This document shows, piece by piece, positions 1 to 59,429 of a stretch of DNA of 64,000 bases (positions within the stretch are counted from its first letter, which is position 1; each line of letters begins with the position of its first letter). Origin of the DNA: Steroidobacteraceae bacterium (lineage in GTDB: Bacteria; Pseudomonadota; Gammaproteobacteria; Steroidobacterales; Steroidobacteraceae); the NCBI GenBank assembly GCA_049792815.1, contig JBARBG010000081.1, positions 8,296-72,295 of the forward strand. The letters run 5' to 3'. Made by a program: the position numbers and the translations under genes. The notes below the pieces were generated by a model. It made no database searches. It was given only the letters and a program-made list of their open reading frames with translations, and was not told where the DNA came from.

Positions 1-1071
1 TGCGAAATGCCGCTGTGCGGCGTGCCATTGCGCCTGGATGACCTCTGCGGGGCCGTGGAAACTCAGCCACAGTCGCCAGTACGGGACGCCGGCACGAGCG
101 CCGTAGGCCTCGATTTGCGGCGAGTATCCCAACTTCGTGCCCTTCAGGAGGTTCACGTGCTCCGCGGTCATCTGCGGCGGACCGGTCTCATTCAACTGCT
201 GCACCTGCCCGACCGCTGGGTAGCCGAGCAGCGGCGAATCGATGTCAGGGAAGCCTGAGCTGATGCGGCTGTTCTCCACGAAGTTCAGGATTTCAACCAG
301 CGGCATCAGGTCCTGGTAGCGCGGCACGCTCACGGTGCAACGCTGGTAGGCCTCCGGTTCGGGCATCAGCCAGAACCCCATCTTGGTGACGATGCCGTAG
401 TTTGACTGCGAGAAAATGCCGTCGATCCACGGCCCGCAGCCCGACTTGTACTGTTGCCAGGTCTGCGCGTTCGGGATCGCGCCCATGCCGGTACGCAGCA
501 ACTCACCGTTCGGCAATACGATCTCCATGCCGCAATGGGAGTCGAAGTGATTGCGATAGTTGGCGTTTGTGTAACCACCGCCACGATCGAGGGCATTACC
601 CACTACGCTTCCCCATCCTGGGTCCGGGCAGTCGATCCAGACCTTGAGCTTGTGCTCCTGGATATAGCGGTACAGGTCGAAATAGCTGACGCCGGGTTCC
701 ACCAGGGCGAAAGCGTTCTTCTCGTTGACCTCGATGATGCGGTTCATCCGCTTGAGGTCCAGTACCACGCTTCCCGAGTACGCCGGCGCCGAGCCACCGT
801 AACCCAGGTTCCTGCCGGTCGAGATCGGGTAGAGCGGAATTCGGAACTTGTTGGCGATGCGGACGATCTGCTGCACCTGCTCGGTTGAAACCGGCGCCAG
901 CGCCCCTGAGGCTATCCTTTCCTCGGGCTCGTTCATGAATGGTGAGAAGGCGTCGCGATAGAGATCGAGGTCCTCATCGCTCGTGAACACCCATTCCCGG
1001 CCTATGGCCTGTGCACATTCGTCCAGCGCCTTCGCATAGTCGGCGGCACTGACGTTCGGCGGTACTCTCAT
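1..1071 (-). CDS. FAD-linked oxidase, p-cresol methylhydroxylase / vanillyl-alcohol oxidase flavoprotein subunit (PchF-like). N-terminal 357 aa only; the 3' end runs off the window.
   Basis: Not in the ORF track because no stop lies in the window. Manual translation from ATG 1071: MRVPPNVSAADYAKALDECAQAIGREWVFTSDEDLDLYRDAF...PISTGRNLGYGGSAP, an FAD_binding_4-type motif. Sits downstream of pchC/pchX-like genes. Confidence 0.75.
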   Translation of the reverse strand, partial: MRVPPNVSAADYAKALDECAQAIGREWVFTSDEDLDLYRDAFSPFMNEPEERIASGALAPVSTEQVQQIVRIANKFRIPLYPISTGRNLGYGGSAPAYSGSVVLDLKRMNRIIEVNEKNAFALVEPGVSYFDLYRYIQEHKLKVWIDCPDPGWGSVVGNALDRGGGYTNANYRNHFDSHCGMEIVLPNGELLRTGMGAIPNAQTWQQYKSGCGPWIDGIFSQSNYGIVTKMGFWLMPEPEAYQRCTVSVPRYQDLMPLVEILNFVENSRISSGFPDIDSPLLGYPAVGQVQQLNETGPPQMTAEHVNLLKGTKLGYSPQIEAYGARAGVPYWRLWLSFHGPAEVIQAQWHAAQRHFA

Positions 1072-11204: not shown

Positions 11205-11440
11205 CCGCGCATTGTGGCCACAATTCAAGGTGCCAGCGAGTGTGCCGAGCTGGTCAATACTGGGGCAAGAAATTTTAAAGGCTCCGAGTTGGGGCGCACG
11301 CTCCCTCACTCCACCCGTGCCGCGGTCCCGAGTCGCCTCCGTAACATGTTGTTTTCCTGAGGTGAACGACGCAGATCGCGTGCGCAGAGTGCCGTCGGCA
11401 CAGGGCTTGCAGTGGAGATCCCCAGACAAAGGAAATGTGC

Positions 11441-11547
11441 GTCTAGGGTTCCGGCCTGTTGCAGCAACGGGTGTCTGGTCCGAGAGAGGCAGTCCGGGCG
11501 CGCAGCAAAGCGCCCCGGATACACGGCGGGACAAAAGCCCGGGAGAT
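11441..11547 (+). promoter_or_regulatory. Guanidine-I riboswitch aptamer (ykkC-yxkD leader, subtype 1)
   Basis: Invariant blocks in canonical order: CUAGGGUUCCGG 11443-11454, hairpin, GGUCCGAGAG 11477-11486, hairpin CCGGGCGC/GCGCCCCGG, ACACGGCGGGACAAAAGCCCGGGAGA 11521-11546. Lies about 125 nt upstream of the receptor ATG. Confidence 0.85.
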
Positions 11548-44730: not shown

Positions 44731-44807
44731 CGGAACGTGGCGCAGTCTGGTAGCGCACTTGCATGGGGTGCAAGGGGTCGAGAGTTCAAATCTCTCCGTT
44801 CCGACCA
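44731..44807 (+). tRNA. tRNA-Pro (GGG)
   Basis: CGGAACGTGGCGCAGTCTGGTAGCGCACTTGCATGGGGTGCAAGGGGTCGAGAGTTCAAATCTCTCCGTTCCGACCA. Anticodon loop ATGGGGT. A perfect TATAAT lies at 44717-44722. Confidence 0.9.
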
Positions 44808-44836: not shown

Positions 44837-44857
44837 GTGGTCCCACCAGTGGTCCCA
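44837..44857 (+). repeat. Arm-type direct repeats GTGGTCCCA x2 (attL side)
   Basis: GTGGTCCCA at 44837-45 and 44849-57. The same tandem pair occurs at 59242-61. Confidence 0.6.
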
Positions 44858-45127
44858 TTTACCACGTGCCGACCCTGCGCCTTTTGGCGCCGGGTCCCTC
44901 CACGGCCTGCCCATCGGACGGACCGGGTGTAGTCGGATGTCCCACGAGCCAACTGGAGCCGTCGGGTCCGGGACTGTGGTGTCAGACACGACGCGCAAGC
45001 CACTCCCCCTTGCGAGTCTGAAGCAGAGATCCGGACTGGATCTACGGCAAACAACCGAGCGAGGACACCGGCCTTGGCCCAGCCGCTGATGGCTGACGGA
45101 TCGGCCAGAGTAAACGGCGCAGCGTCT

Positions 45128-46792: not shown

Positions 46793-47518
46793 ATGAAAGA
46801 CGAACTGATCGAACTGCTCAAGTCGCTGCGCTTGCGCGGCATGGCCTCTGCGCTTGAGGACAGCATGACGGCGCTGAGCCAAAAGAAGCTGGCGCCGACG
46901 AGTTGGCTGCAGCAGCTGCTGCACGCCGAGATCGCCGATCGCCAGGCGCGCTCTTACCAATACCAGCTGCGGCTCGCCAGCTTCCCCATGCCCAGGGATC
47001 TTGATAGCTTCGACTTCAAGGACTCCGCGGTCAACGAAACGCAGATCCGCCAGCTCCACACCGGGGAATACCTGGCGACGGCGCGCAACATCGTCTTGGT
47101 GGGTGGCACCGGCACCGGCAAGACACATCTGGCCATTGCGCTCGCCCGCGAGGTCGTGCTGAAGGGGATGCGCGCGCGGTTCTACGGCGTCGTGGACCTC
47201 GTCAACCAGCTCGATGCCGAGAAGCGTGCCGGCCGCGCCGGGCGTCTAGCCAGCCGGCTGCTCAACCAGAACGCGATCGTGCTCGACGAACTCGGCTACC
47301 TGCCGTTCGCCCAGGACGGCGGTGCGCTGCTGTTCCACCTGATCAGCAAGCTTTATGAACGCGTCTCACTGATCGTTACCACCAACCTCACATTCGGGGA
47401 GTGGAGCAACGTGTTCGGCGACGCCAAGATGACGACGGCGCTGCTCGACCGGCTCACCCACCGCTGCGACATCATCGAGACGGGCAACGACAGCTATCGG
47501 TTCAAGAACCGGAAATGA
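46793..47518 (+). CDS. istB: IS21 helper ATPase IstB
   Basis: 241 aa with [14 protein letters not shown] (Walker A), VLDELGY (Walker B) and LLDRLTHRC. Confidence 0.9.
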
Positions 47519-51111: not shown

Positions 51112-51856
51112 ATCACTACCTCTTGTAGTGCTACAGAGCGTAGCGGATAGAAATGCAAATGTCAATGTGCTTGTTTTCAATCGCCGTTAGGCCTCAGCAT
51201 CAGCGGTTCTCGCGTCCAAATGCTGGCGCTGAACAGAATGGCCAATTCTGTCCAAAAGCCGCCCAATCTGGATCGGGTTCCTGCAGTAGTTCTCGAAATC
51301 GCGGTTCCTGATACCGGACATTGATAAAGGACAGCTTGGGGTGCATTTTGCTGCGCGTCGGACTGTGGGTCCAATTCGACCATCCGCGGCTGGATCGGCC
51401 GTCGCTCGGCGTTCTCGAATCCAAACATTCATGTCCATTCTCATTCAGAGTCGATCGTTCGGCGTGACTGGATGGAGCGCCCCGAAGCGCGGCGTTTCGG
51501 CTTGCCGATTTGACCAAACGGATGGACGACCGCAATTTGCTGGCGGGACGCGTACCGTGGAATTACCTGCGTCTCAAGTTGGTCAAAAGGCATTCCGTCG
51601 GGTCGAAAGAGGCCATGGATATGCTCTTGGTCGGTCAGAGGGAGGCGCCGTGAGTTAGCGGCTTGTAGTCTGTTGCGTCGCGTGCTCAACATTGGCATAA
51701 AGCGGCCACAAAGGCGCGATTGCGCGACAGAAGCGGGTGCCGTCGCAAATCATCCAAATGCATCCACGCATTGACGATGATGGAGGGTGGCTTGCCCTTC
51801 TGGAAACCCGCGGGTCGGAGACCGTTGCCGTATTGGAAGTCTACTCGAATTAGTAC

Positions 51857-53170: not shown

Positions 53171-53506
53171 GCGTCAAAATGGCAAAGTCGGTATGGGCAA
53201 GGACAGAATTCCCTTTGAGAAGCAGGAACCCTGTTATGCCTTCGGAGCTAATGCCTGTTGAGTAGCGCCACATACCTAGCACCCCATATATCCCACGAAA
53301 TCGCGCGACGGTCATAGCATCGAAATCTTTGGGTCGCAATCCGCCGCCTGCCGCGCCGCAATATTCTCGTGGGTTCACATTCGCGACAATGATGATTAGC
53401 GGCCGCTGCTTTGACGCCTGAGAATGATGCATCCGACCGGAAACGGCTGCGGATTCAGGAAGCGCAGCAATTTGACTGCGGGTCGCGGGAATGCTGGAGT
53501 TGGGTC

Positions 53507-53920
53507 ATGGGGTTTACGATAATGAGTGCGACCGAAGTGGCAATTGTCACCCTTTGGACGCTATTGGTCGTAATGGCCGTAGCGCTGTTAGGCAAGGTCC
53601 TATTCGAAGATGCCGGAATGTCACATGAGCCGCTCGGTGTTCGGTTTGCGTTCAGCTCCTTTGCCTTAATTCCGACCTCTGTGTCATTGGCGCTTACGCT
53701 TCTGAGTCTTCTGCGCAAGCCAGACGGCCTTCCTCACGGACAGATAACTTGGCCCTTGTTCTTTGTTGGCGATCTTCTTGCAGTCCCAGTTGCAGTCCTG
53801 GCGGCGATTTTGCCACCCTATCGGAAGAAGGATTACGTACTTCACGCCATGTCCGTGGCGATTGCGTTGGCAGCGCTGGCTGCGGTTGCGGGCATGGTGA
53901 TGTACGGGCCGGGTGCATAA
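53507..53920 (+). CDS. Cassette ORF: small polytopic membrane protein, unknown function
   Basis: 137 aa from MGFTIMSATEVAIVTLW, with about 4 TM segments. A GTTGGGT core lies 1 nt before the ATG. Confidence 0.45.
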   Translation: MGFTIMSATEVAIVTLWTLLVVMAVALLGKVLFEDAGMSHEPLGVRFAFSSFALIPTSVSLALTLLSLLRKPDGLPHGQITWPLFFVGDLLAVPVAVLAAILPPYRKKDYVLHAMSVAIALAALAAVAGMVMYGPGA

Positions 53921-53943
53921 ATGCTTCAGCCAGCAACGTCACA

Positions 53944-54027
53944 GGCTAACATGCGTTTGAGAGGACGCGCCGTGAATAAACTGCTGGTAGAAATTTTGCA
54001 GCGCGCCGCTCAACTCTTGCGTTAGAT
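53944..54027 (+). repeat. attC site 1 (84 bp)
   Basis: GGCTAAC...TTGAG..GCGC // GCGC..CTCAA..GTTAGAT. The right half CCGCTCAACTCTTGCGTTAGAT closely resembles the class-1 aadA1 59-be right end as I recall it. Confidence 0.7.
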
Positions 54028-54044
54028 GAAGGACAAGGCTCTCC

Positions 54045-54467
54045 ATGATTCCCATACCTTCAGACTGGCGGCGCATTAAAAGATTGAGCGCATTGTTTCT
54101 CCTCGGGGCGGGGGCACTGGCCCTCTATTTCGGGCGGCATAATTTTCCTATTCGGGCCATTGGACTCATCGCGATAATGAGCACGGTGGTGCTTGCAAGA
54201 TCGCCACAGGGTCCCCTCTCAATTGCAGAACAGAAGAATCGTCCGCCGCCTCTGAATATTCTCCATTGGGCAATTGCAATATTACTCACGGGTGCCTCGG
54301 CATTATCCTACCGAATACTTTGGGTCACGGGACATGATGGAAGCACGTCGATTTGGCCTGTCTATGCATTCGCGGGGGCTGTCCTCATTGCCGGGGCCTA
54401 TTGGGCGGCTCTCCTGACGCGACTGCAGGAGGCCGGCACACGATGGCCCTGGACCGAACCCATCTAA
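54045..54467 (+). CDS. Cassette ORF: small polytopic membrane protein, unknown function
   Basis: 140 aa with about 4 TM segments. Starts 18 nt after the attC1 core. Confidence 0.45.
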   Translation: MIPIPSDWRRIKRLSALFLLGAGALALYFGRHNFPIRAIGLIAIMSTVVLARSPQGPLSIAEQKNRPPPLNILHWAIAILLTGASALSYRILWVTGHDGSTSIWPVYAFAGAVLIAGAYWAALLTRLQEAGTRWPWTEPI

Positions 54468-54729
54468 GATTCGAGCGGACGCGCCTTGAATACGGAACCC
54501 CACGGAGGATTTCAAGTCTCTGATGGGACGAAGGGTTAAATCAGCCATTTTCTGATGCCCGATACCGGACGCTCACCACCGGCGGGTTTGGGTGCTTACC
54601 CGCCGACCGTGGGCCAGTCAACCGAGGGGCAGCTTTCGGGAGGGGCATCGGACGCCTGCCGGCCCAAAGCAGACGGTGACCGACACTTATTGGTCGGCAC
54701 TTAGCGGCCGTTCGCCGTCTGCGTTAAGC
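54462..54729 (+). repeat. attC-like site 2, atypically long (left half at 54462, right half ending GTTAAGC at 54729), with inserted sequence
   Basis: The left half ATCTAAGATTCGAGCGGACGCGCC is complementary to GCGGCCGTTCG...GTTAAGC at 54704-54729. The centre carries the 57-nt repeat. An alternative short end is GTTAAAT at 54535-41. Confidence 0.4.
54505..54561 (+). repeat. 57-nt repeat, copy A (inside attC-like site 2)
   Basis: 49/57 identical to 56066-56122 by manual alignment. Confidence 0.7.
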
Positions 54730-54853
54730 TAAAACCCGGCGATGGTGAATCCCACCCGCACGGTAAGGAGTGCGCAATTGCCTTTGGACATATCGGTCAA
54801 GGGTAGGCGTCGTTTTCGTGGCCTAAGTTGTGGTTAGGCTTCAGGAGAAAGAC

Positions 54854-55378
54854 ATGCGTCGCCGTGCCGTCAAGAGTCTTTGCTTCTGCTTAACCTTGGC
54901 TAGCCTATGCGCGGTGACTAGTGCGCCCGCATCATCGGGTGAGCCTGAGCGACTTCACCTGACCGGCTACGTGTTCATCACGCCTGTAGATGAACGAAGA
55001 CTGCTCATCGCGGTGTCCGTTGCTCCAGGGCAGTCTGTTGAGCATCTATTCCTGTATACGGCGGGAAAGACGCCGCGCGTCCCAATGGTAACGCTCAACC
55101 TTCGAAACGTCAGAGCAACTGTAGAGTTCGAAGGTGGAAGAGTGCTCAAGATAATGCCGACTAGCCCCAGAGCTCAAACCATTCAGTTCACAGGCGGCCC
55201 GGCACTGACCAATTCCATGGTCATCAATTTTGAGTGGAATGCCGGCGCTGTTCATTACATCGCAACCCCACCTTTGAGCATTCGGGAATTGGAGTCGGTG
55301 CGCGTGGTGGGGGATTGCAACCTACGTCCCGCGGCCTGCGTTGATGCAGCGGGACAGCTGCTCCCGTTTCCAGAATGA
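54854..55378 (+). CDS. Cassette ORF: secreted protein, unknown function
   Basis: 174 aa from MRRRAVKSLCFCLTLASLCAVTSAPASS (signal peptide). GTTAGGC at 54833-39 and AGGAGA precede the ATG. Confidence 0.45.
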   Translation: MRRRAVKSLCFCLTLASLCAVTSAPASSGEPERLHLTGYVFITPVDERRLLIAVSVAPGQSVEHLFLYTAGKTPRVPMVTLNLRNVRATVEFEGGRVLKIMPTSPRAQTIQFTGGPALTNSMVINFEWNAGAVHYIATPPLSIRELESVRVVGDCNLRPAACVDAAGQLLPFPE

Positions 55379-55379
55379 A

Positions 55380-55484
55380 ACCTAACATGCTCGAGCGGAC
55401 ACGTGAATAAAGTGCCCGGGTCGTCAATGTGATCAACAGCAGTACAATGGCGTTGTACCGCGCCGCTCAACTCTGGCGTTAGGC
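55380..55484 (+). repeat. attC site 3 (105 bp)
   Basis: ACCTAAC-ATGCT-CGAGCGG ... CCGCTCA-ACTCTGGC-GTTAGGC. R''/R' pair 6/7 and L''/L' pair 6/7. Begins 2 nt after the stop codon. Confidence 0.75.
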
Positions 55485-55490
55485 TATCGA

Positions 55491-56030
55491 ATGAAATATT
55501 GCCTTCTCCTTCTTATCGTTTTTGCAGCACGCGCTGACGCCGCAGACTTCCGGGTTTTGAATATCGGTGATGCGTGCGTGGGCTTGGAGGCGAAGGAGGC
55601 CGCATTGGGCTCGAAGGCGATACCCCGGAATGGTACGCCTAATACAGTGACGAACGCATTTGAGGCGAAAGAATTCGGCCGTGATGTTGTCGTGCTGTAT
55701 CTCTGCAATGAAGGGCGTCTCAACACTGGCAATTACCGACTTCCACTTGAAGATCTGAACGATGCCGTTAAGAGTTTCCGGAACGTCCACGACCAGCTAT
55801 TAAGAAAGTATGGAACCTCATTCCTCGATAGCTCGCCGTGGCACGTGAGAGACGTAACCCAGCCAGCAATAATCAGCTCGCAACCAAATGAGTACTACAC
55901 GGAGTGGAGAACTCCTCGCCTATTAGCCCATTTGATGATTGTCCAAGGCCGCCAGCCCAACGGAAGTATTGGTGGTTGGACGGTATCGCTTTTCATCGTC
56001 CCTCCAGCGCCGCAGCTTAAACCTAACTGA
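55491..56030 (+). CDS. Cassette ORF: secreted protein, unknown function
   Basis: 179 aa with MKYCLLLLIVFAARADA (signal peptide). Starts 7 nt after the attC3 core. Confidence 0.45.
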   Translation: MKYCLLLLIVFAARADAADFRVLNIGDACVGLEAKEAALGSKAIPRNGTPNTVTNAFEAKEFGRDVVVLYLCNEGRLNTGNYRLPLEDLNDAVKSFRNVHDQLLRKYGTSFLDSSPWHVRDVTQPAIISSQPNEYYTEWRTPRLLAHLMIVQGRQPNGSIGGWTVSLFIVPPAPQLKPN

Positions 56031-56193
56031 CGATGGAGCTGAGGCACCGTGAATAAGGACACACCGAGGATTTCGAGTCTCTGATGGGCCGAAGCGTTGA
56101 TTCAGCCGTATTCTGAAGCCCGGGAGCGGTCGGTCGCGACCGTCAACAATGGGTCAACCAGCGTCGCCAGGGCCTTTGAACAACTATTAGGAT
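56021..56193 (+). repeat. attC-like site 4 (left half ACCTAAC at 56021, degenerate right end ATTAGGA at 56187-93)
   Basis: The left half resembles sites 1-3 (…GTGAATAAG). The centre carries the second copy of the 57-nt repeat. The right end GAACAACTATTAGGA is only loosely like the others. Confidence 0.35.
56066..56122 (+). repeat. 57-nt repeat, copy B (inside attC-like site 4)
   Basis: 49/57 identical to 54505-54561. Confidence 0.7.
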
Positions 56194-56225
56194 CCCATAT
56201 TCGTGCTGAAATCGGAGTCGCAACG

Positions 56226-56543
56226 ATGACTGATGCATGCAGCAATGCAGTGCCCAAGCCGGGAACCAGGCGCCCTCGCTGGACGTCGTTTGTCGCAGCT
56301 CCGCTGACCGGCAGAGCTATCCGCGGGTTACAGGAAGAGGGCAATCCACGCCATCGGGTCCGGGTGGAACACAATCGGGAGACGTTACTGGTCCACATCT
56401 CGAACGAGGACGGGGAAGGCTGGACAACTCTGGCAATTGATCGACCTACTCGGGAGTGGGCGATTGCCCAGCGGGAACGTCAACTGGATTCTGCCCAGAC
56501 CGCTTACAACCTTCTCTACGCAAGTGGTCAGGTTACGAAATGA
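56226..56543 (+). CDS. Cassette ORF: hypothetical protein
   Basis: 105 aa from MTDACSNAVPK. The track ORF starts at a TTG inside the repeat at 56097, which I consider unlikely. The stop overlaps the next start (ATGA). Confidence 0.35.
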   Translation: MTDACSNAVPKPGTRRPRWTSFVAAPLTGRAIRGLQEEGNPRHRVRVEHNRETLLVHISNEDGEGWTTLAIDRPTREWAIAQRERQLDSAQTAYNLLYASGQVTK

Positions 56544-56920
56544 TCGTCCCCATGCTTATCTGTGCGGACGGTGCCGCTGAGATTGAATTCTGCAAGCAAG
56601 CATTCGGCGCGATCGAATTGTCCCGTCGAATCGGCCAGGCTGGAGAGGTCGTACATGCGACACTCAAGATTGGCGAGGATATATTTATGGTGCACGGACA
56701 ATACCCGCATCTGAAGAGCATGGCCCCTGCCGATGATGGGAGTTCACCGGTCGTCATCTACTTGTACATCGACAACGTCGATGCTGTGATTGAGCGTGCT
56801 GTAGAGGCCGGTGCACAAGTCGTATTGCCAACAGCAGACCAGCCTTGGGGCGATCGAGTTGGCAGAGTCATGGATCCAGCCGGACATGTGTGGAATATCG
56901 CAACGCACCTCTACGGCTAA
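56540..56920 (+). CDS. VOC-family (glyoxalase/bleomycin-resistance/PhnB-like) protein
   Basis: 126 aa from MIVPMLICADGAAEIEFCKQAFGA...PWGDRVGRVMDPAGHVWNI. Confidence 0.75.
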   Translation: MIVPMLICADGAAEIEFCKQAFGAIELSRRIGQAGEVVHATLKIGEDIFMVHGQYPHLKSMAPADDGSSPVVIYLYIDNVDAVIERAVEAGAQVVLPTADQPWGDRVGRVMDPAGHVWNIATHLYG

Positions 56921-57009
56921 ACAGATGCTGGCATCCGGCGTCCCCATAAGCGGCCGTTGGCGAACGGCCGGTTGGGGTGCGCAGCAGCCGGCCGCTACTG
57001 CTTAGTGGC
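56915..57009 (+). repeat. attC-like site 5 (degenerate)
   Basis: GGCTAAAC overlaps the stop codon. Internal 8-bp palindrome CGGCCGTT/AACGGCCG. Right half GCCGCTACTGCTTAGTG resembles the GCCGCTCAACTC..GCGTTAG halves. Confidence 0.35.
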
Positions 57010-57220
57010 TTCGGGATTATCAGTGCGGAGGAAGCTGGCCATGCCTCGAAAAAAAGAAGAAGAACGCAATAGCGAGAACTGCCCAGGCCACGACAACCCA
57101 GGCCAATATCCGCCAAACAGTTCGCACGATCGCCGCCTCCGGCAACAAAGGTCCCTGCGAGGCTACTACCAGTATTCGCTGCCCGAAAGCAGCCGCTCAC
57201 CAGCGACCGCTATAGGTTGC

Positions 57221-57547
57221 TCAGCCGCCAAGCAGCCGCCGAGCTAATAGAGACTGCATATCCCGTCGCCCATCGGCAATGATGTAGATCGCGACTTGCT
57301 GTCCGAACACGCGATAGATCAGCCTATAGGGCTTGAAGAATACCTGCCGATATTCCTGATCGCCCAGCGACCGGAGTTCCTTAGGCTGTGAGCCGCGCGA
57401 CGGCGCCGCGGTAAGGCTATCGGCAATCTCGAGGAGTCGGTTTAGAACATGCTCCGCCCTGGCGGGCGAATCATTCTTTGCGATGTAAGTGACGATGTCT
57501 TCCAGATCGCGTTCGGCGTCCTCGGTGAGAACGACGTGAAAACCCAT
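57221..57547 (-). CDS. parE: ParE/RelE-family type II toxin
   Basis: 108 aa from MGFHVVLTEDAERDLEDIVTYI...YRLIYRVFGQQVAIYIIADGRRD. Confidence 0.8.
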   Translation of the reverse strand: MGFHVVLTEDAERDLEDIVTYIAKNDSPARAEHVLNRLLEIADSLTAAPSRGSQPKELRSLGDQEYRQVFFKPYRLIYRVFGQQVAIYIIADGRRDMQSLLARRLLGG

Positions 57548-57831
57548 TAGTCCACCGTCACGGCCAGAACACGCAGTCTTGCAACGACATCGGCCAGCGG
57601 CTTCATTCGGCCTTGTGCGACCTGTTGGTTCCCAAGCGCCAATATCTTCAGCAGCGCCAGAGTCTCCTGGGTCTGCTCGTAGGAGGCCACGTCTTGGATC
57701 ACGGCCTTGGCCTCTCCATTCTGAGTGATGACCATTGGCTGACGCTGTTCCGCCAAATCTCGCAGCACCTCTGCCGCATTTGCTTTCAGATAGCTGATTG
57801 GCTTGATCTGCGTTGAATATCGCACGTCCAC
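57547..57831 (-). CDS. Phd/YefM-family antitoxin
   Basis: 94 aa with MDVRYSTQIKPISYLKANAAEVLRDLAEQRQPMVITQNGEAKAVIQDV. TAATG overlap with the toxin gene. Confidence 0.8.
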   Translation of the reverse strand: MDVRYSTQIKPISYLKANAAEVLRDLAEQRQPMVITQNGEAKAVIQDVASYEQTQETLALLKILALGNQQVAQGRMKPLADVVARLRVLAVTVD

Positions 57832-57919: not shown

Positions 57920-59251
57920 TCAAATGGGCGATTCTTGAGGACTGTGCACAAGAATCTGCCGATCTCTGGTCGAGCGGCTCCGTTTCGTTCTCTGGAGGTT
58001 GAATTCGGGGCAAATGTCACGCAACCGCTCAAGGTACTGCGCCCACCTTGTCAGCGCCTCCCGCTTCTCATCGATGTACTCGTGGAGATCGTAAGTCGCC
58101 TCCATTCGATTCCGGGCGTGGTTGAGCACACGCTCCGCAATGTCGATCTTGATTCCCAGACGCCCGAGGCCGGTTCGGCCGTTGCGACGCAAATCGTGCG
58201 GCGTGAAAGCCGCCACGCCATGCTTACTGAACCGTTTGAGGCATCGGGCGACACTGCGTGTGACGTACTTCGGGTCATCCGGGCCGGAGCCGTCACCGTT
58301 TGGCAGCACGTAGCGTGAATCATCCGCCATGCCCTTAAGAGCCTGCAGCTCGGTTACCGCCCAATCCGAGAGCGGCAATACGTGACCCTTGCCGGTCTTG
58401 GCACGCGAATCTGGAATCGTCCAGGTCTTCGCCTCGAAATCGAACTCATCCCACTCGGCGAGGGCCAGCTCGCTGCGCCGCTGCAGGGTCAGGAGCAGTA
58501 CGCGAAGTACGCGCGGCAGGCGCTTGAAGCGGCATCCGTCGTCCAGATTGACCAGGAATGCCTTCAGCTCCTCTTCGGAAAATACCCGCGAACGCGGCTT
58601 GTCCTTGCCGCCCGGCCTGTAGAGCAGCTGTACGGGGTTCGTTTCGACAATGGCGCGATGGATGCCAAAGCGGAACATCTGTGACAGCACGCCGGCGACC
58701 CGGTTTGCCATTACCGGGGCTCTATCGGCGACTTCATCCAGAAATTCGATGATTTCCCGTGGCTTGATCGTCCGGGCGTCGCGGCTCCTCCAGCGAGGCA
58801 GCACATCGGTATCCAAGATTCGCCGCACGTACTCGGGGCGCCGGCGTTGAATCTTGACGTGACGCTCCATGAATTCCTGAGCGAGATTTTCGACGGAATG
58901 TCCGTTGGCGAGCAGGGTGCCGGGGCTGCTTGGCTTAATCCGATGCGCGCGCGTGATGCCGGCCCGCCGTGGATCAATCTCCCGACGGAGGAGGGCACGG
59001 GCGGCATCGACCTTTTCGTGTGCGTCCGCCAGACCGACATCGGGATAGACCCCGAGCACGAGCCGAGCACGTCGGCCGTGCCAATAGAACCGCCAGTGCC
59101 AGGACTTCACACCCGTTTCTGCAACGCGCAGTTGCAAACCGGCGCAGGCCGGATCGCCCACTTCGTAGCGTCGGGGTCCCGCTGCGAGGCTCGCGATGCG
59201 ACTGCTTGTCAGTTTCGGAAGGAGGCCCTGCGCCTTCTTGAGTGGTCCCAC
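57920..59251 (-). CDS. int: Tyrosine recombinase, P4-type island integrase (DUF4102 arm-binding N-domain)
   Basis: 443 aa with a GTG start, ...GLQLRVAETGVKSWHWRFYW..., and catalytic R...HDLRRNGRT...LNHA...Y. Adjacent to the tRNA-Pro fragment. Confidence 0.9.
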   Translation of the reverse strand: MGPLKKAQGLLPKLTSSRIASLAAGPRRYEVGDPACAGLQLRVAETGVKSWHWRFYWHGRRARLVLGVYPDVGLADAHEKVDAARALLRREIDPRRAGITRAHRIKPSSPGTLLANGHSVENLAQEFMERHVKIQRRRPEYVRRILDTDVLPRWRSRDARTIKPREIIEFLDEVADRAPVMANRVAGVLSQMFRFGIHRAIVETNPVQLLYRPGGKDKPRSRVFSEEELKAFLVNLDDGCRFKRLPRVLRVLLLTLQRRSELALAEWDEFDFEAKTWTIPDSRAKTGKGHVLPLSDWAVTELQALKGMADDSRYVLPNGDGSGPDDPKYVTRSVARCLKRFSKHGVAAFTPHDLRRNGRTGLGRLGIKIDIAERVLNHARNRMEATYDLHEYIDEKREALTRWAQYLERLRDICPEFNLQRTKRSRSTRDRQILVHSPQESPI

Positions 59252-59261
59252 GGTGGTCCCA
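59242..59261 (+). repeat. Arm-type direct repeats GTGGTCCCA x2 (attR side, overlapping the int start)
   Basis: GTGGTCCCA at 59242-50 and 59253-61. Same motif and orientation as 44837-57. Confidence 0.6.
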
Positions 59262-59381
59262 TTTTGCTGCGACAGGGCGAATCGTACCGCTTCGGCGTGC
59301 GACGCGGAAGTGGCTTATTTTCTAGATGTTGCAGGCCAATTGGCGTTGCGATATGTTGCGCCTCGTTGCAGCCCGATTTTC

Positions 59382-59429
59382 CATGGGGTGCAAGGGGTCC
59401 CGAGTTCAAATCTCGGCGTTCCGACCAAT
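59382..59429 (+). repeat. tRNA-Pro 3'-half fragment (att direct repeat, right end of island)
   Basis: CATGGGGTGCAAGGGGTCCCGAGTTCAAATCTCGGCGTTCCGACCAAT. The 4 differences from 44762-44809 are compensatory in the T-stem. No 5' half lies upstream. Confidence 0.8.

Follow-up and report, generated by a model that had tools for sequence, protein, structure and literature searches.

Clusters of attC sites lacking an integron integrase (CALINs) have been defined as two or more attC sites that share a strand, are separated by less than 4 kb and have no integron integrase in their vicinity (PMC4889954). The 64-kb stretch of DNA analysed here (the window) very probably contains such an element, a small and partly eroded cassette cluster without an integrase, lying on a tRNA-Pro island of roughly 14.6 kb in a member of the Steroidobacteraceae. 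The CALIN label had been proposed from the sequence alone, and it fits the published definition (PMC4889954) because two plus-strand attC sites, here called attC-1 and attC-2, are 1,352 nt (about 1.35 kb) apart. As had also been proposed, the window contains no integron integrase that phmmer or tblastn could find with four integron integrases as queries. These searches covered about 53 kb on the upstream side of the cluster and 8.5 kb on its downstream side; the no-integrase margin for a CALIN is 4 kb, or 10 kb for pseudogenes, of which the downstream part was covered to 8.5 kb. The combination that makes up a complete integron, a TIGR02249 integrase with an attI site and a cassette promoter by the array, is absent. 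In kind, the cluster is the same as the CALINs described previously (PMC4889954), down to the presence of cassettes without known function, but it differs from them in being of minimum size, in its visible decay and in its location on a tRNA island that encodes its own integrase of the P4 type. It is one more example of a known and fairly common type of element, a documented case rather than a new principle, in which what appear to be cassettes of a soil Steroidobacteraceae chromosomal integron, without their integrase, sit on a tRNA island that brings its own.

Relatives of the window sites are found beside integron integrase genes. When species genomes were scanned for the right arm of the window sites, at least 119 loci (L002 to L120) were returned, mostly arrays of Rhodanobacter, Dyella and Frateuria among the matches listed, and tblastn with four integron integrases detected integron integrase genes, full-length or partial, in about 30 of the at least 119 loci listed. 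Eight loci scanned with TIGR02249 scored 331 to 497 bits, compared with a cut-off of 265. One locus, L085, is a chromosomal integron on contig DATHMK010000053.1 of the Steroidobacteraceae MAG SMAG_U12630, in which a partial integron integrase gene (1-771, minus strand) precedes a plus-strand series of at least 11 attC sites, 84, 108 or 137 nt long and mostly 420 to 480 nt apart. attC-1 shares 80 to 86% identity with the 84-nt sites found in L085 and in a second locus, L055, and attC-2 is 74 to 81% identical to the 108-nt sites of L085. The window and L085 come from the same family of bacteria and share the 84/108-nt size classes of attC, the loop motif GTGAATAAACTGCC, an identity of 74 to 86% between sites, and an organization into short co-oriented ORFs with an attC site after each. 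Judged by this sequence similarity, attC-1 and attC-2 belong to the 84/108-nt family of attC sites that adjoins the L085 integron integrase gene. Whereas L085 has this gene directly upstream and at least 11 intact, regularly spaced sites, the window has no integron integrase, and its sites comprise two that are intact and two that are truncated. Our literature search found no paper tying Steroidobacter to integrons.

The attC site of aadA1 in class 1 integrons has the same architecture, with arms GTCTAACAATTCGTTCAAGCCGAC...GCGGCTTAACTCAAGCGTTAGAT compared with GGCTAACATGCGTTTGAGAGGAC...GCCGCTCAACTCTTGCGTTAGAT in the window, and both sites score about 60 bits with the covariance model described below. 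The likeness to the end of the aadA1 59-be, which the sequence-only reading had pointed out, was borne out by the aadA1 site of plasmid NZ_AP024754.1, which ends GCGGCTTAACTCAAGCGTTAGAT where the window site ends GCCGCTCAACTCTTGCGTTAGAT. The aadA1 site is 60 nt long with a 3-nt loop, whereas the window sites are 84 and 105 nt long and have a conserved loop motif, and the window cassettes, unlike the aadA1 cassette, are not resistance genes.

Two complete attC sites

attC sites are usually about 57 to 141 nt long, IntegronFinder setting an upper limit of 200 nt, and extrahelical bases in the folded site direct the choice of strand. The core-like motifs from which the cluster had been recognized are all in place: in the first set, GGCTAAC at 53944, ATCTAAG at 54462, ACCTAAC at 55380 and 56021, and GGCTAAAC at 56915; in the second set, GTTAGAT at 54021, GTTAAGC at 54723, and GTTAGGC at 54833 and 55478. 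The array of five intact cassettes built on them does not stand, since three of its five sites are either truncated or something other than attC. Sites 1 and 3 (attC-1 and attC-2) are complete according to our covariance model R2, sites 2 and 4 are truncated, and site 5 is not an attC site. The interval of 7 to 33 nt claimed between each core and the next ATG is present after 54027, 54839 and 55484, but after 54729 the gap is 124 nt.

attC-1 (53944-54027, plus strand; 84 nt) scored 59 bits with R2 (E = 1.7e-12, about 2e-12) and has the R'' box GGCTAAC, the L boxes GTTTGAGAGGACGCG and CGCGCCGCTCAAC, and the R' box GTTAGAT. attC-2 (55380-55484, plus strand; 105 nt) has the R'' box ACCTAAC and the R' box GTTAGGC and scored 46.2 bits (E = 2.6e-9, about 3e-9). 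Both sites open with an inverse core of the form RYYYAAC and close with a GTTRRRY core, AAC and GTT being conserved; the one departure from RYYYAAC is the purine at the second base of GGCTAAC in attC-1. In both, L'' pairs with L' and a central spacer is unpaired (spacers of 4 and 6 nt in the R2 alignment). The L-box pairs in this alignment are mostly standard, and the pairing is backed by covariation within the family; attC-2 is two bases short in the GTT/AAC part of its L box. Compared with the right arm, the left arm has additional bases (GTT-T-GAG..GG-A-CGCG in attC-1 and the same A in attC-2), and the strand call for attC-2 is clear, with 46 bits on the plus strand and 8 bits on the minus strand. 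At 84 and 105 nt, both sites lie downstream of the stop codons of co-oriented ORFs, attC-1 beginning 24 nt past the stop of ORF A and attC-2 beginning 2 nt past that of ORF C. By analogy with integrons in general, each site would be expected to fold, on its bottom strand, as an imperfect hairpin composed of R box, unpaired spacer, L box with extrahelical bases, and variable loop. Imperfect hairpins had been claimed for both sites; in attC-1 the minimum free energy (MFE) fold of the bottom strand pairs the R and L boxes, and in attC-2 the MFE fold pairs the R box alone. The fold of attC-1 is no more stable than that of shuffled sequence (z = -0.17).

R2 was built from 33 long attC sites of other genomes, taken from loci that had been retrieved with the window's own right arm, although the exact right-arm pattern occurs in none of the training sites. 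In the 33-site alignment, pairing of the R and L boxes is kept in 93% of cells, and 85 cells are compensatory, compared with 32.8 in shuffles; when the partner is slid by 1 to 3 columns, pairing is at most 43%. Over the whole 64-kb window, R2 returned attC-1 and attC-2 only, the next best match having an E value above 1. On the positive control, the clinical class 1 integron plasmid NZ_AP024754.1, it found six sites, five of them at 34 to 63 bits, including the classical attC sites after aadA1, aadA2, qacL and cmlA, and the sixth at 16 bits. Four of the six start no more than 11 nt from the annotated end of a gene, namely that of a HAD-family hydrolase, aadA2, aadA1 or qacL. A preceding model, R1, made from 44 short sites of 57 nt, gave attC-1 only 12 bits and missed attC-2, and it was replaced by R2; a MAFFT alignment that mixed short and long sites misplaced the left arm and was dropped. 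Rfam has no attC family and gave no match across 51-59.5 kb.

Truncated sites and an associated conserved sequence

The attC left arm occurs four times in the window (nhmmer E = 7e-13, 1.4e-7, 5e-5 and 0.036), and the 23-nt right arm GCCGCTCAACTCTNGCGTTAGRY occurs twice, compared with 0.01 occurrences expected. Site 2 is a truncated attC (54462-54495, plus strand; nhmmer E = 5e-5) of which there is a left arm only; in its R'' box, ATCTAAG, the AAC of the core has become AAG, there is no unpaired spacer between the R and L boxes, and neither a right arm (nhmmer) nor an R2 match was found. Site 4 (56021-56056, plus strand; E = 0.036) consists of a degenerate left arm, with no right arm at all by nhmmer. 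Nor did nhmmer detect a significant right arm ahead of either of the cores at 54723 and 54833. Site 5 (56915-57010), downstream of ORFs E and F, forms a strong hairpin on the plus strand (z = -3.6), but R2 and nhmmer found no attC there, and its proposed inverse core GGCTAAAC departs from the RYYYAAC form. An attC-like stretch at 51641-51706, upstream of a hydrolase gene, was flagged by a repeat search and was not significant with nhmmer.

Both truncated left arms are fused to copies of a conserved element of about 110 nt, copy 1 (54496-54600, plus strand) to that of site 2 and copy 2 (56057-56160, plus strand) to that of site 4; over 81 nt, copy 1 matches 56062-56142 at 80% identity. The same left-arm junction recurs in a third copy, on the metagenome contig L121, the one true copy returned by a metagenome scan that also gave a partial match of 35 nt (L122). 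The element has no match in Rfam, and none was found in the 120 genome loci listed or in plasmids. The unit of left arm and conserved sequence trails three different ORFs, of which the window has two and an unrelated metagenome contig the third. It is conceivable, if rather doubtful, that the left arm and the about 110 to 200 nt of conserved sequence represent an undescribed attC-associated element, either a disabling insertion in the loop or a class of attC sites with a very long loop. A small sequence inserted at a fixed point of the attC loop would disable the site and fix the cassette in place, and the recurrent truncated unit poses a small question about how attC sites are lost.

The tRNA-Pro island and alternative readings

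The cluster had been described as nested in a tRNA-Pro island, and a tRNA gene, a 47-nt repeat of its 3' end and a tyrosine integrase between the two are all present. The tRNA-Pro (GGG) gene at 44731-44807 (plus strand; ARAGORN; Rfam tRNA, 61.8 bits) forms the left boundary, and a 47-nt copy of its 3' half at 59382-59428 (plus strand) forms the right boundary; the differences between this copy and the tRNA are compensatory within the T stem. The island measures about 14.6 kb and has a G+C content of about 56%, compared with about 62% in the rest of the window, and housekeeping genes such as pheT lie outside the repeats. The sole recombinase (57920-59251, minus strand) is of the P4 type, as proposed: it has the Pfam domains Arm-DNA-bind_3, Phage_int_M and Phage_integrase and no TIGR02249 match. 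Genes for a ParE toxin and a Phd/YefM antitoxin (Pfam PF05016 and PF02604) occupy 57221-57831 on the minus strand. Toxin-antitoxin cassettes occur in sedentary chromosomal integrons (PMC13108822); the ParE/Phd pair of the window is located where the cluster ends, is oppositely oriented and, unlike those cassettes, has no flanking attC site detectable with R2 or nhmmer. The proteins of the window have been deposited as Steroidobacteraceae MAG proteins MGC1458165-183.

Could the cluster instead be the distal part of a complete integron, with the integrase gene just outside the examined DNA or split from it by an assembly error? The source contig is 92,881 bp long, of which 64 kb was covered, and relatives such as L085 do have an integrase gene directly upstream of the array. 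However, an integron integrase gene normally precedes the first cassette, and none is present in about 53 kb upstream, nor did phmmer or tblastn find one in the 8.5 kb downstream; moreover, the tRNA-Pro repeats enclose the cluster, with housekeeping genes such as pheT beyond them, and we regard this reading as very unlikely. Less probable still, to a degree that makes it nearly negligible, is that the spacers are ordinary intergenic repeats, such as REP-like elements or terminator hairpins, that resemble attC by chance. Homology to sites from arrays that adjoin integron integrase genes spans the whole sites, the R2 matches (E of 1e-12 and 1e-9) have no rival in 64 kb, R2 also picks out classical attC sites of a class 1 integron, and the strand call for site 3 is 46 bits on the plus strand against 8 on the minus. 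These points contradict a chance resemblance for sites 1 and 3, despite folding energies no better than those of shuffles, and leave it to hold for site 5 only, which is just a strong hairpin (z = -3.6, plus strand).

The remaining alternative, which is unlikely but slightly less so than a distal integron fragment, is that all four spacers with a left arm are functional, sites 2 and 4 belonging to a long-loop class of about 260 to 270 nt and the cluster comprising four working cassettes. A left arm with conserved sequence after ORFs B and D, and again in L121, is the pattern of an attC family, and by eye, about 260 nt downstream, site 2 and its L121 counterpart finish with GTTAAGC and GTTAGCC and faintly resemble the right arm there; standard models would miss such a class, and a model of the length of R2 cannot report matches that long. 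Yet site 2 has AAG where AAC is invariant in 33 of 33 sites, it lacks the unpaired spacer, and by eye it can form only about 11 of 20 model pairs, whereas genuine sites keep 93%. Bottom-strand folds were no more stable than those of shuffled sequence (z = -0.99 and +1.33) and left the R boxes unpaired, so that folding does not back a "giant attC" interpretation of sites 2 and 4; site 4 has no candidate right arm, and nhmmer found a right arm at neither site.

Cassette genes and their possible mobility

Six ORFs (A to F), all co-oriented, make up the coding part of the cluster. ORF A (53507-53920, plus strand) encodes a protein of 137 amino acids with about four hydrophobic segments and no known family, for which a homologue search found four in all. 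ORF B (54045-54467, plus strand; 140 amino acids) encodes a membrane-like protein and is absent from the NCBI annotation. ORF C (54854-55378, plus strand; 174 amino acids), preceded by GTTAGGC, AGGAGA and then its ATG, begins with a signal-like segment, as does ORF D (55491-56030, plus strand; 179 amino acids), which starts 12 nt past the crossover point and whose sole match in an exact-protein look-up was a 4.6-kb copy of the same locus. ORFs E and F (56226-56920, plus strand) overlap; E encodes 105 amino acids of no family, and F encodes a VOC/glyoxalase protein of 126 amino acids (Pfam PF00903). PADLOC and NCBIfam gave no match for the cassette ORFs, and Pfam recognized the VOC protein only. 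In a consensus promoter scan, promoter-like sites were no commoner than expected by chance. With neither an attI site nor a cassette promoter, the ORFs would be expressed by read-through from the co-oriented hydrolase gene or from internal promoters.

If the cluster is, as we favor, a decaying CALIN with two complete sites, an integron integrase supplied in trans would be expected to bind the attC hairpin and cut in the GTT core, and recombination between attC-1 and attC-2 could excise ORFs B and C together on a single 1,457-bp circle (54022-55478). Because only two sites are usable, one circle at most could be released, and this stretch looks to be at most one excisable segment; the prediction is that it is the only part of the cluster that can still be excised. 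With no attC site upstream of ORF A and the downstream sites of ORFs D to F lost, these cassettes would be effectively fixed. The P4-type integrase of the island could move the whole cassette set between genomes. In this way, the locus may illustrate how integron cassettes could spread from one genome to another and later be locked in place through decay of their attC sites.

Two observations connect individual cassettes with other loci. ORF B has a weak homologue (L063, 6164-6463; 32% identity over 102 amino acids, E = 1e-5) just after the first attC site detected next to the Rhodanobacter Col0626 integron integrase gene. The cassette A unit (53456-54021, plus strand), which runs from a leader of about 50 nt through ORF A to the crossover G of attC-1, is 85 to 90% identical to part of the metagenome contig L124; there the similarity does not extend past the R' core and neither flank is related, and this presence of the unit in a different context, with homology ending at the R' core, is evidence for cassette mobility.

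Two complete attC sites

The sequence-only reading had proposed five attC spacers (sites 1 to 5, beginning at 53944, 54462, 55380, 56021, and 56915), and direct reading of the region located each of its motifs at the position it had reported. The spacers are not random: a 23-nt right arm, GCCGCTCAACTCTNGCGTTAGRY, is present at both 54005 and 55462, where 0.01 would be expected, and a repeat search found the left arm four times (53946, 54460, 55382, and 56023). Arm-specific nhmmer profiles likewise detected left arms at four places (E values of 7e-13, 1.4e-7, 5e-5, and 0.036) and right arms at sites 1 and 3 only. An earlier covariance model built from 57-nt sites, R1, was unable to span long loops and was therefore dropped. 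A second model, R2, was trained on an alignment of 33 long attC sites, all taken from other genomes and none an exact match to the search pattern, with an imposed structure consisting of a 7-bp R box, a spacer, a 13-bp L box, and two unpaired left-arm bases. In this alignment the canonical attC pairing was kept in 93% of cells, with 85 compensatory cells versus 32.8 in shuffles, and controls with partners slid by 1 to 3 columns paired in at most 43%.

Run unfiltered over the entire window, R2 matched site 1 (attC-1; 53944-54027, + strand, 59 bits, E value of 1.7e-12) and site 3 (attC-2; 55380-55484, + strand, 46.2 bits, E value of 2.6e-9), with no further match at an E value of ≤1. As a positive control, R2 found six sites in the class 1 integron of Klebsiella plasmid NZ_AP024754.1, five at 34 to 63 bits and one at 16 bits, and for four of the six the start is no more than 11 nt from the annotated end of a HAD-family hydrolase gene, aadA2, aadA1, or qacL, confirming the likeness to the aadA1 site noted in the sequence-only reading. 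Rfam, which holds no attC family, gave no match on 51 to 59.5 kb. Sites 1 and 3 are the only complete attC sites; sites 2, 4, and 5 have no R2 match and no right arm.

Truncated sites and a conserved element

Site 2 reads ATCTAAG, departing from the family's invariant AAC, and its unpaired spacer has been lost; site 4 has no right arm. Behind the left arms of these two sites lies an 81-nt repeat with 80% identity, and both arms run, from one shared junction after GTGAATA(A/C)GG, into a conserved sequence of about 110 nt. A third copy of the left arm and conserved element, with an identical junction, is present behind another ORF in a metagenome contig (L121), where it lies downstream of an ordinary attC of the 84-nt type; another contig, L122, has only 35 nt in common with the element. 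Within the conserved element are a 10-codon ORF preceded by GAGGA and a short hairpin in which one change is compensatory. It is possible that these units arose by decay of the right arm, by insertion into an attC loop, or as a class of attC with a long loop; when folded as attC sites of 260 to 270 nt, the units of sites 2 and 4 did no better than shuffles. The copies of the 10-codon ORF (54525-54557 and 56086-56118 in the window, 941-973 in L121) encode MGRRVKSAIF, MGRSVDSAVF, and MGRRVESANF, with the nucleotides less variable than the amino acids, and the ORF ends in a stop codon inside the small conserved hairpin.

Site 5 was rejected as an attC because it showed no attC signal, merely a strong hairpin. 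This hairpin, GGCCGTT-GGCG-AACGGCC (56949-56966), lies 3' of the VOC gene, has a + strand fold z score of -3.6, and is not followed by a T run. Upstream of the alpha/beta hydrolase gene that precedes the cluster, an attC-like stretch that is not statistically significant (51641-51706; GGAGGCGCCGTGAGTTAGCGGC ... GTGCTCAACATTGGCATAAAGC) may be a very decayed attC site; if so, the hydrolase gene may once have been a cassette. Two independent metagenome copies of the attC family (L124, at about 735-745, and L121, at about 352-360) have GATAGG instead of GTTAGG in the R' core, a change that should inactivate the crossover site.

Cassettes and their relatives

The cluster contains six ORFs, all on the + strand. 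ORFs A (53507-53920) and B (54045-54467) are membrane-protein-like, C (54854-55378) and D (55491-56030) have signal-like N termini, and, of these and E (56226-56543) and F (56540-56920), only F has a family assignment (VOC/glyoxalase). Defense-system models gave no match to the cassette ORFs. The window comes from a Steroidobacteraceae MAG, in which the window's proteins are entered as MGC1458165-183 and the contig measures 92,881 bp. ORFs B and E are uncalled in the NCBI annotation of this MAG; ORF B is probably a genuine gene, with a homologue in a Rhodanobacter integron.

A search for the right arm GCCGCTCAACTCNNGCGTTAG, with each species represented by one genome, returned at least 119 stretches. 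Among the matches listed, the majority are arrays of 57-nt sites from Rhodanobacter, Dyella, and Frateuria, with the consensus GCCTAAC-5 nt-GTTCGAGGCGGACGGC-3 nt-GCCGCCGCTCAAC-6 nt-GTTAGGC, MAGs of Steroidobacteraceae, beta-proteobacteria, Myxococcota, and Planctomycetota have versions with long loops, and many loci encode integron integrases (TIGR02249 scores of 331 to 497 bits on the eight loci scanned, against a cutoff of 265). In another Steroidobacteraceae MAG (L085), a partial integron integrase gene (1-771, - strand) is followed by at least 11 attC sites on the + strand, of 84, 108, or 137 nt and mostly 420 to 480 nt apart. These share the loop motif GTGAATAAACTGCC with the window sites, and site 1 is 80 to 86% identical to the 84-nt class and site 3 is 74 to 81% identical to the 108-nt class. 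The block 53456-54021, comprising a leader, ORF A, and attC-1, is 85 to 90% identical to contig L124; the homology ends at the R' core and both flanks are unrelated. A weak homologue of ORF B directly follows the first attC found beside a Rhodanobacter integron integrase gene, and ORFs C and D each begin downstream of a GTTAGGC core, at a distance of 14 and 6 nt, respectively. These three observations count as evidence for mobile cassettes.

Searches with phmmer and tblastn using four integron integrase queries found no integron integrase in the window, as had been claimed, and TIGR02249 did not match the window's integrase (57920-59251). The label CALIN fits; its published definition (PMC4889954) asks for two or more attC sites on one strand, spaced by less than 4 kb, and for no integron integrase in the vicinity. 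Overall, the cluster is a genuine CALIN, minimal and decaying; the original observation is partly confirmed and its interpretation partly supported. CALINs are common and have already been described as mobilized by complete integrons acting in trans, and as being carried along by integrative and conjugative elements.

From this observed anatomy we infer how the cluster might work. Were an integron integrase to act in trans, the two intact sites could recombine and release one 1,457-bp circle (54022-55478) carrying ORFs B and C; ORFs A and D to F no longer lie between two usable sites and would therefore be fixed in place. Expression seems to have no cassette promoter to draw on, and a promoter scan found nothing above chance; the simplest guess is therefore that transcription of the cassettes reads through from the hydrolase gene, which has the same orientation.

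The surrounding tRNA-Pro island

The description of the surroundings as a tRNA-Pro island proved correct, given a tRNA-Pro(GGG) gene (44731-44807), a 47-nt copy of its 3' half (59382-59428), a drop in G+C content from about 62% to about 56% over 48 to 58 kb, a recombinase gene (57920-59251, - strand; domains Arm-DNA-bind_3, Phage_int_M, and Phage_integrase) adjoined by a ParE/Phd pair, and other genes encoding IstB, a NUDIX protein, a FitA-like antitoxin, a BlaI/BlaR1-like pair, and the alpha/beta hydrolase. The island's integrase and repeats could carry the whole set between genomes. The copy at 59382-59428 differs from 44761-44807 in the T stem alone, where the changes are compensatory (GAGAG/CTCTC versus CCGAG/CTCGG), and thus the right-end copy derives from a different tRNA-Pro allele. 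A direct repeat, GTGGTCCCAC-N1-2-GTGGTCCCATTT, occurs at 44838-44862, 31 nt past the tRNA-Pro gene, and at 59241-59266, where it overlaps the P4-type integrase gene's start and lies 116 nt ahead of the tRNA fragment; the copies would flank the attachment core in a circularized island, which makes them candidates for arm-type binding sites of the integrase. The IS21-type IstB helper gene inside the island (46793-47518, 265 bits) is one for which an adjacent IstA transposase gene was not identified. Distant from the cluster, the window also contains a Guanidine-I riboswitch (11432-11547, + strand; 88.7 bits versus a gathering score of 63).
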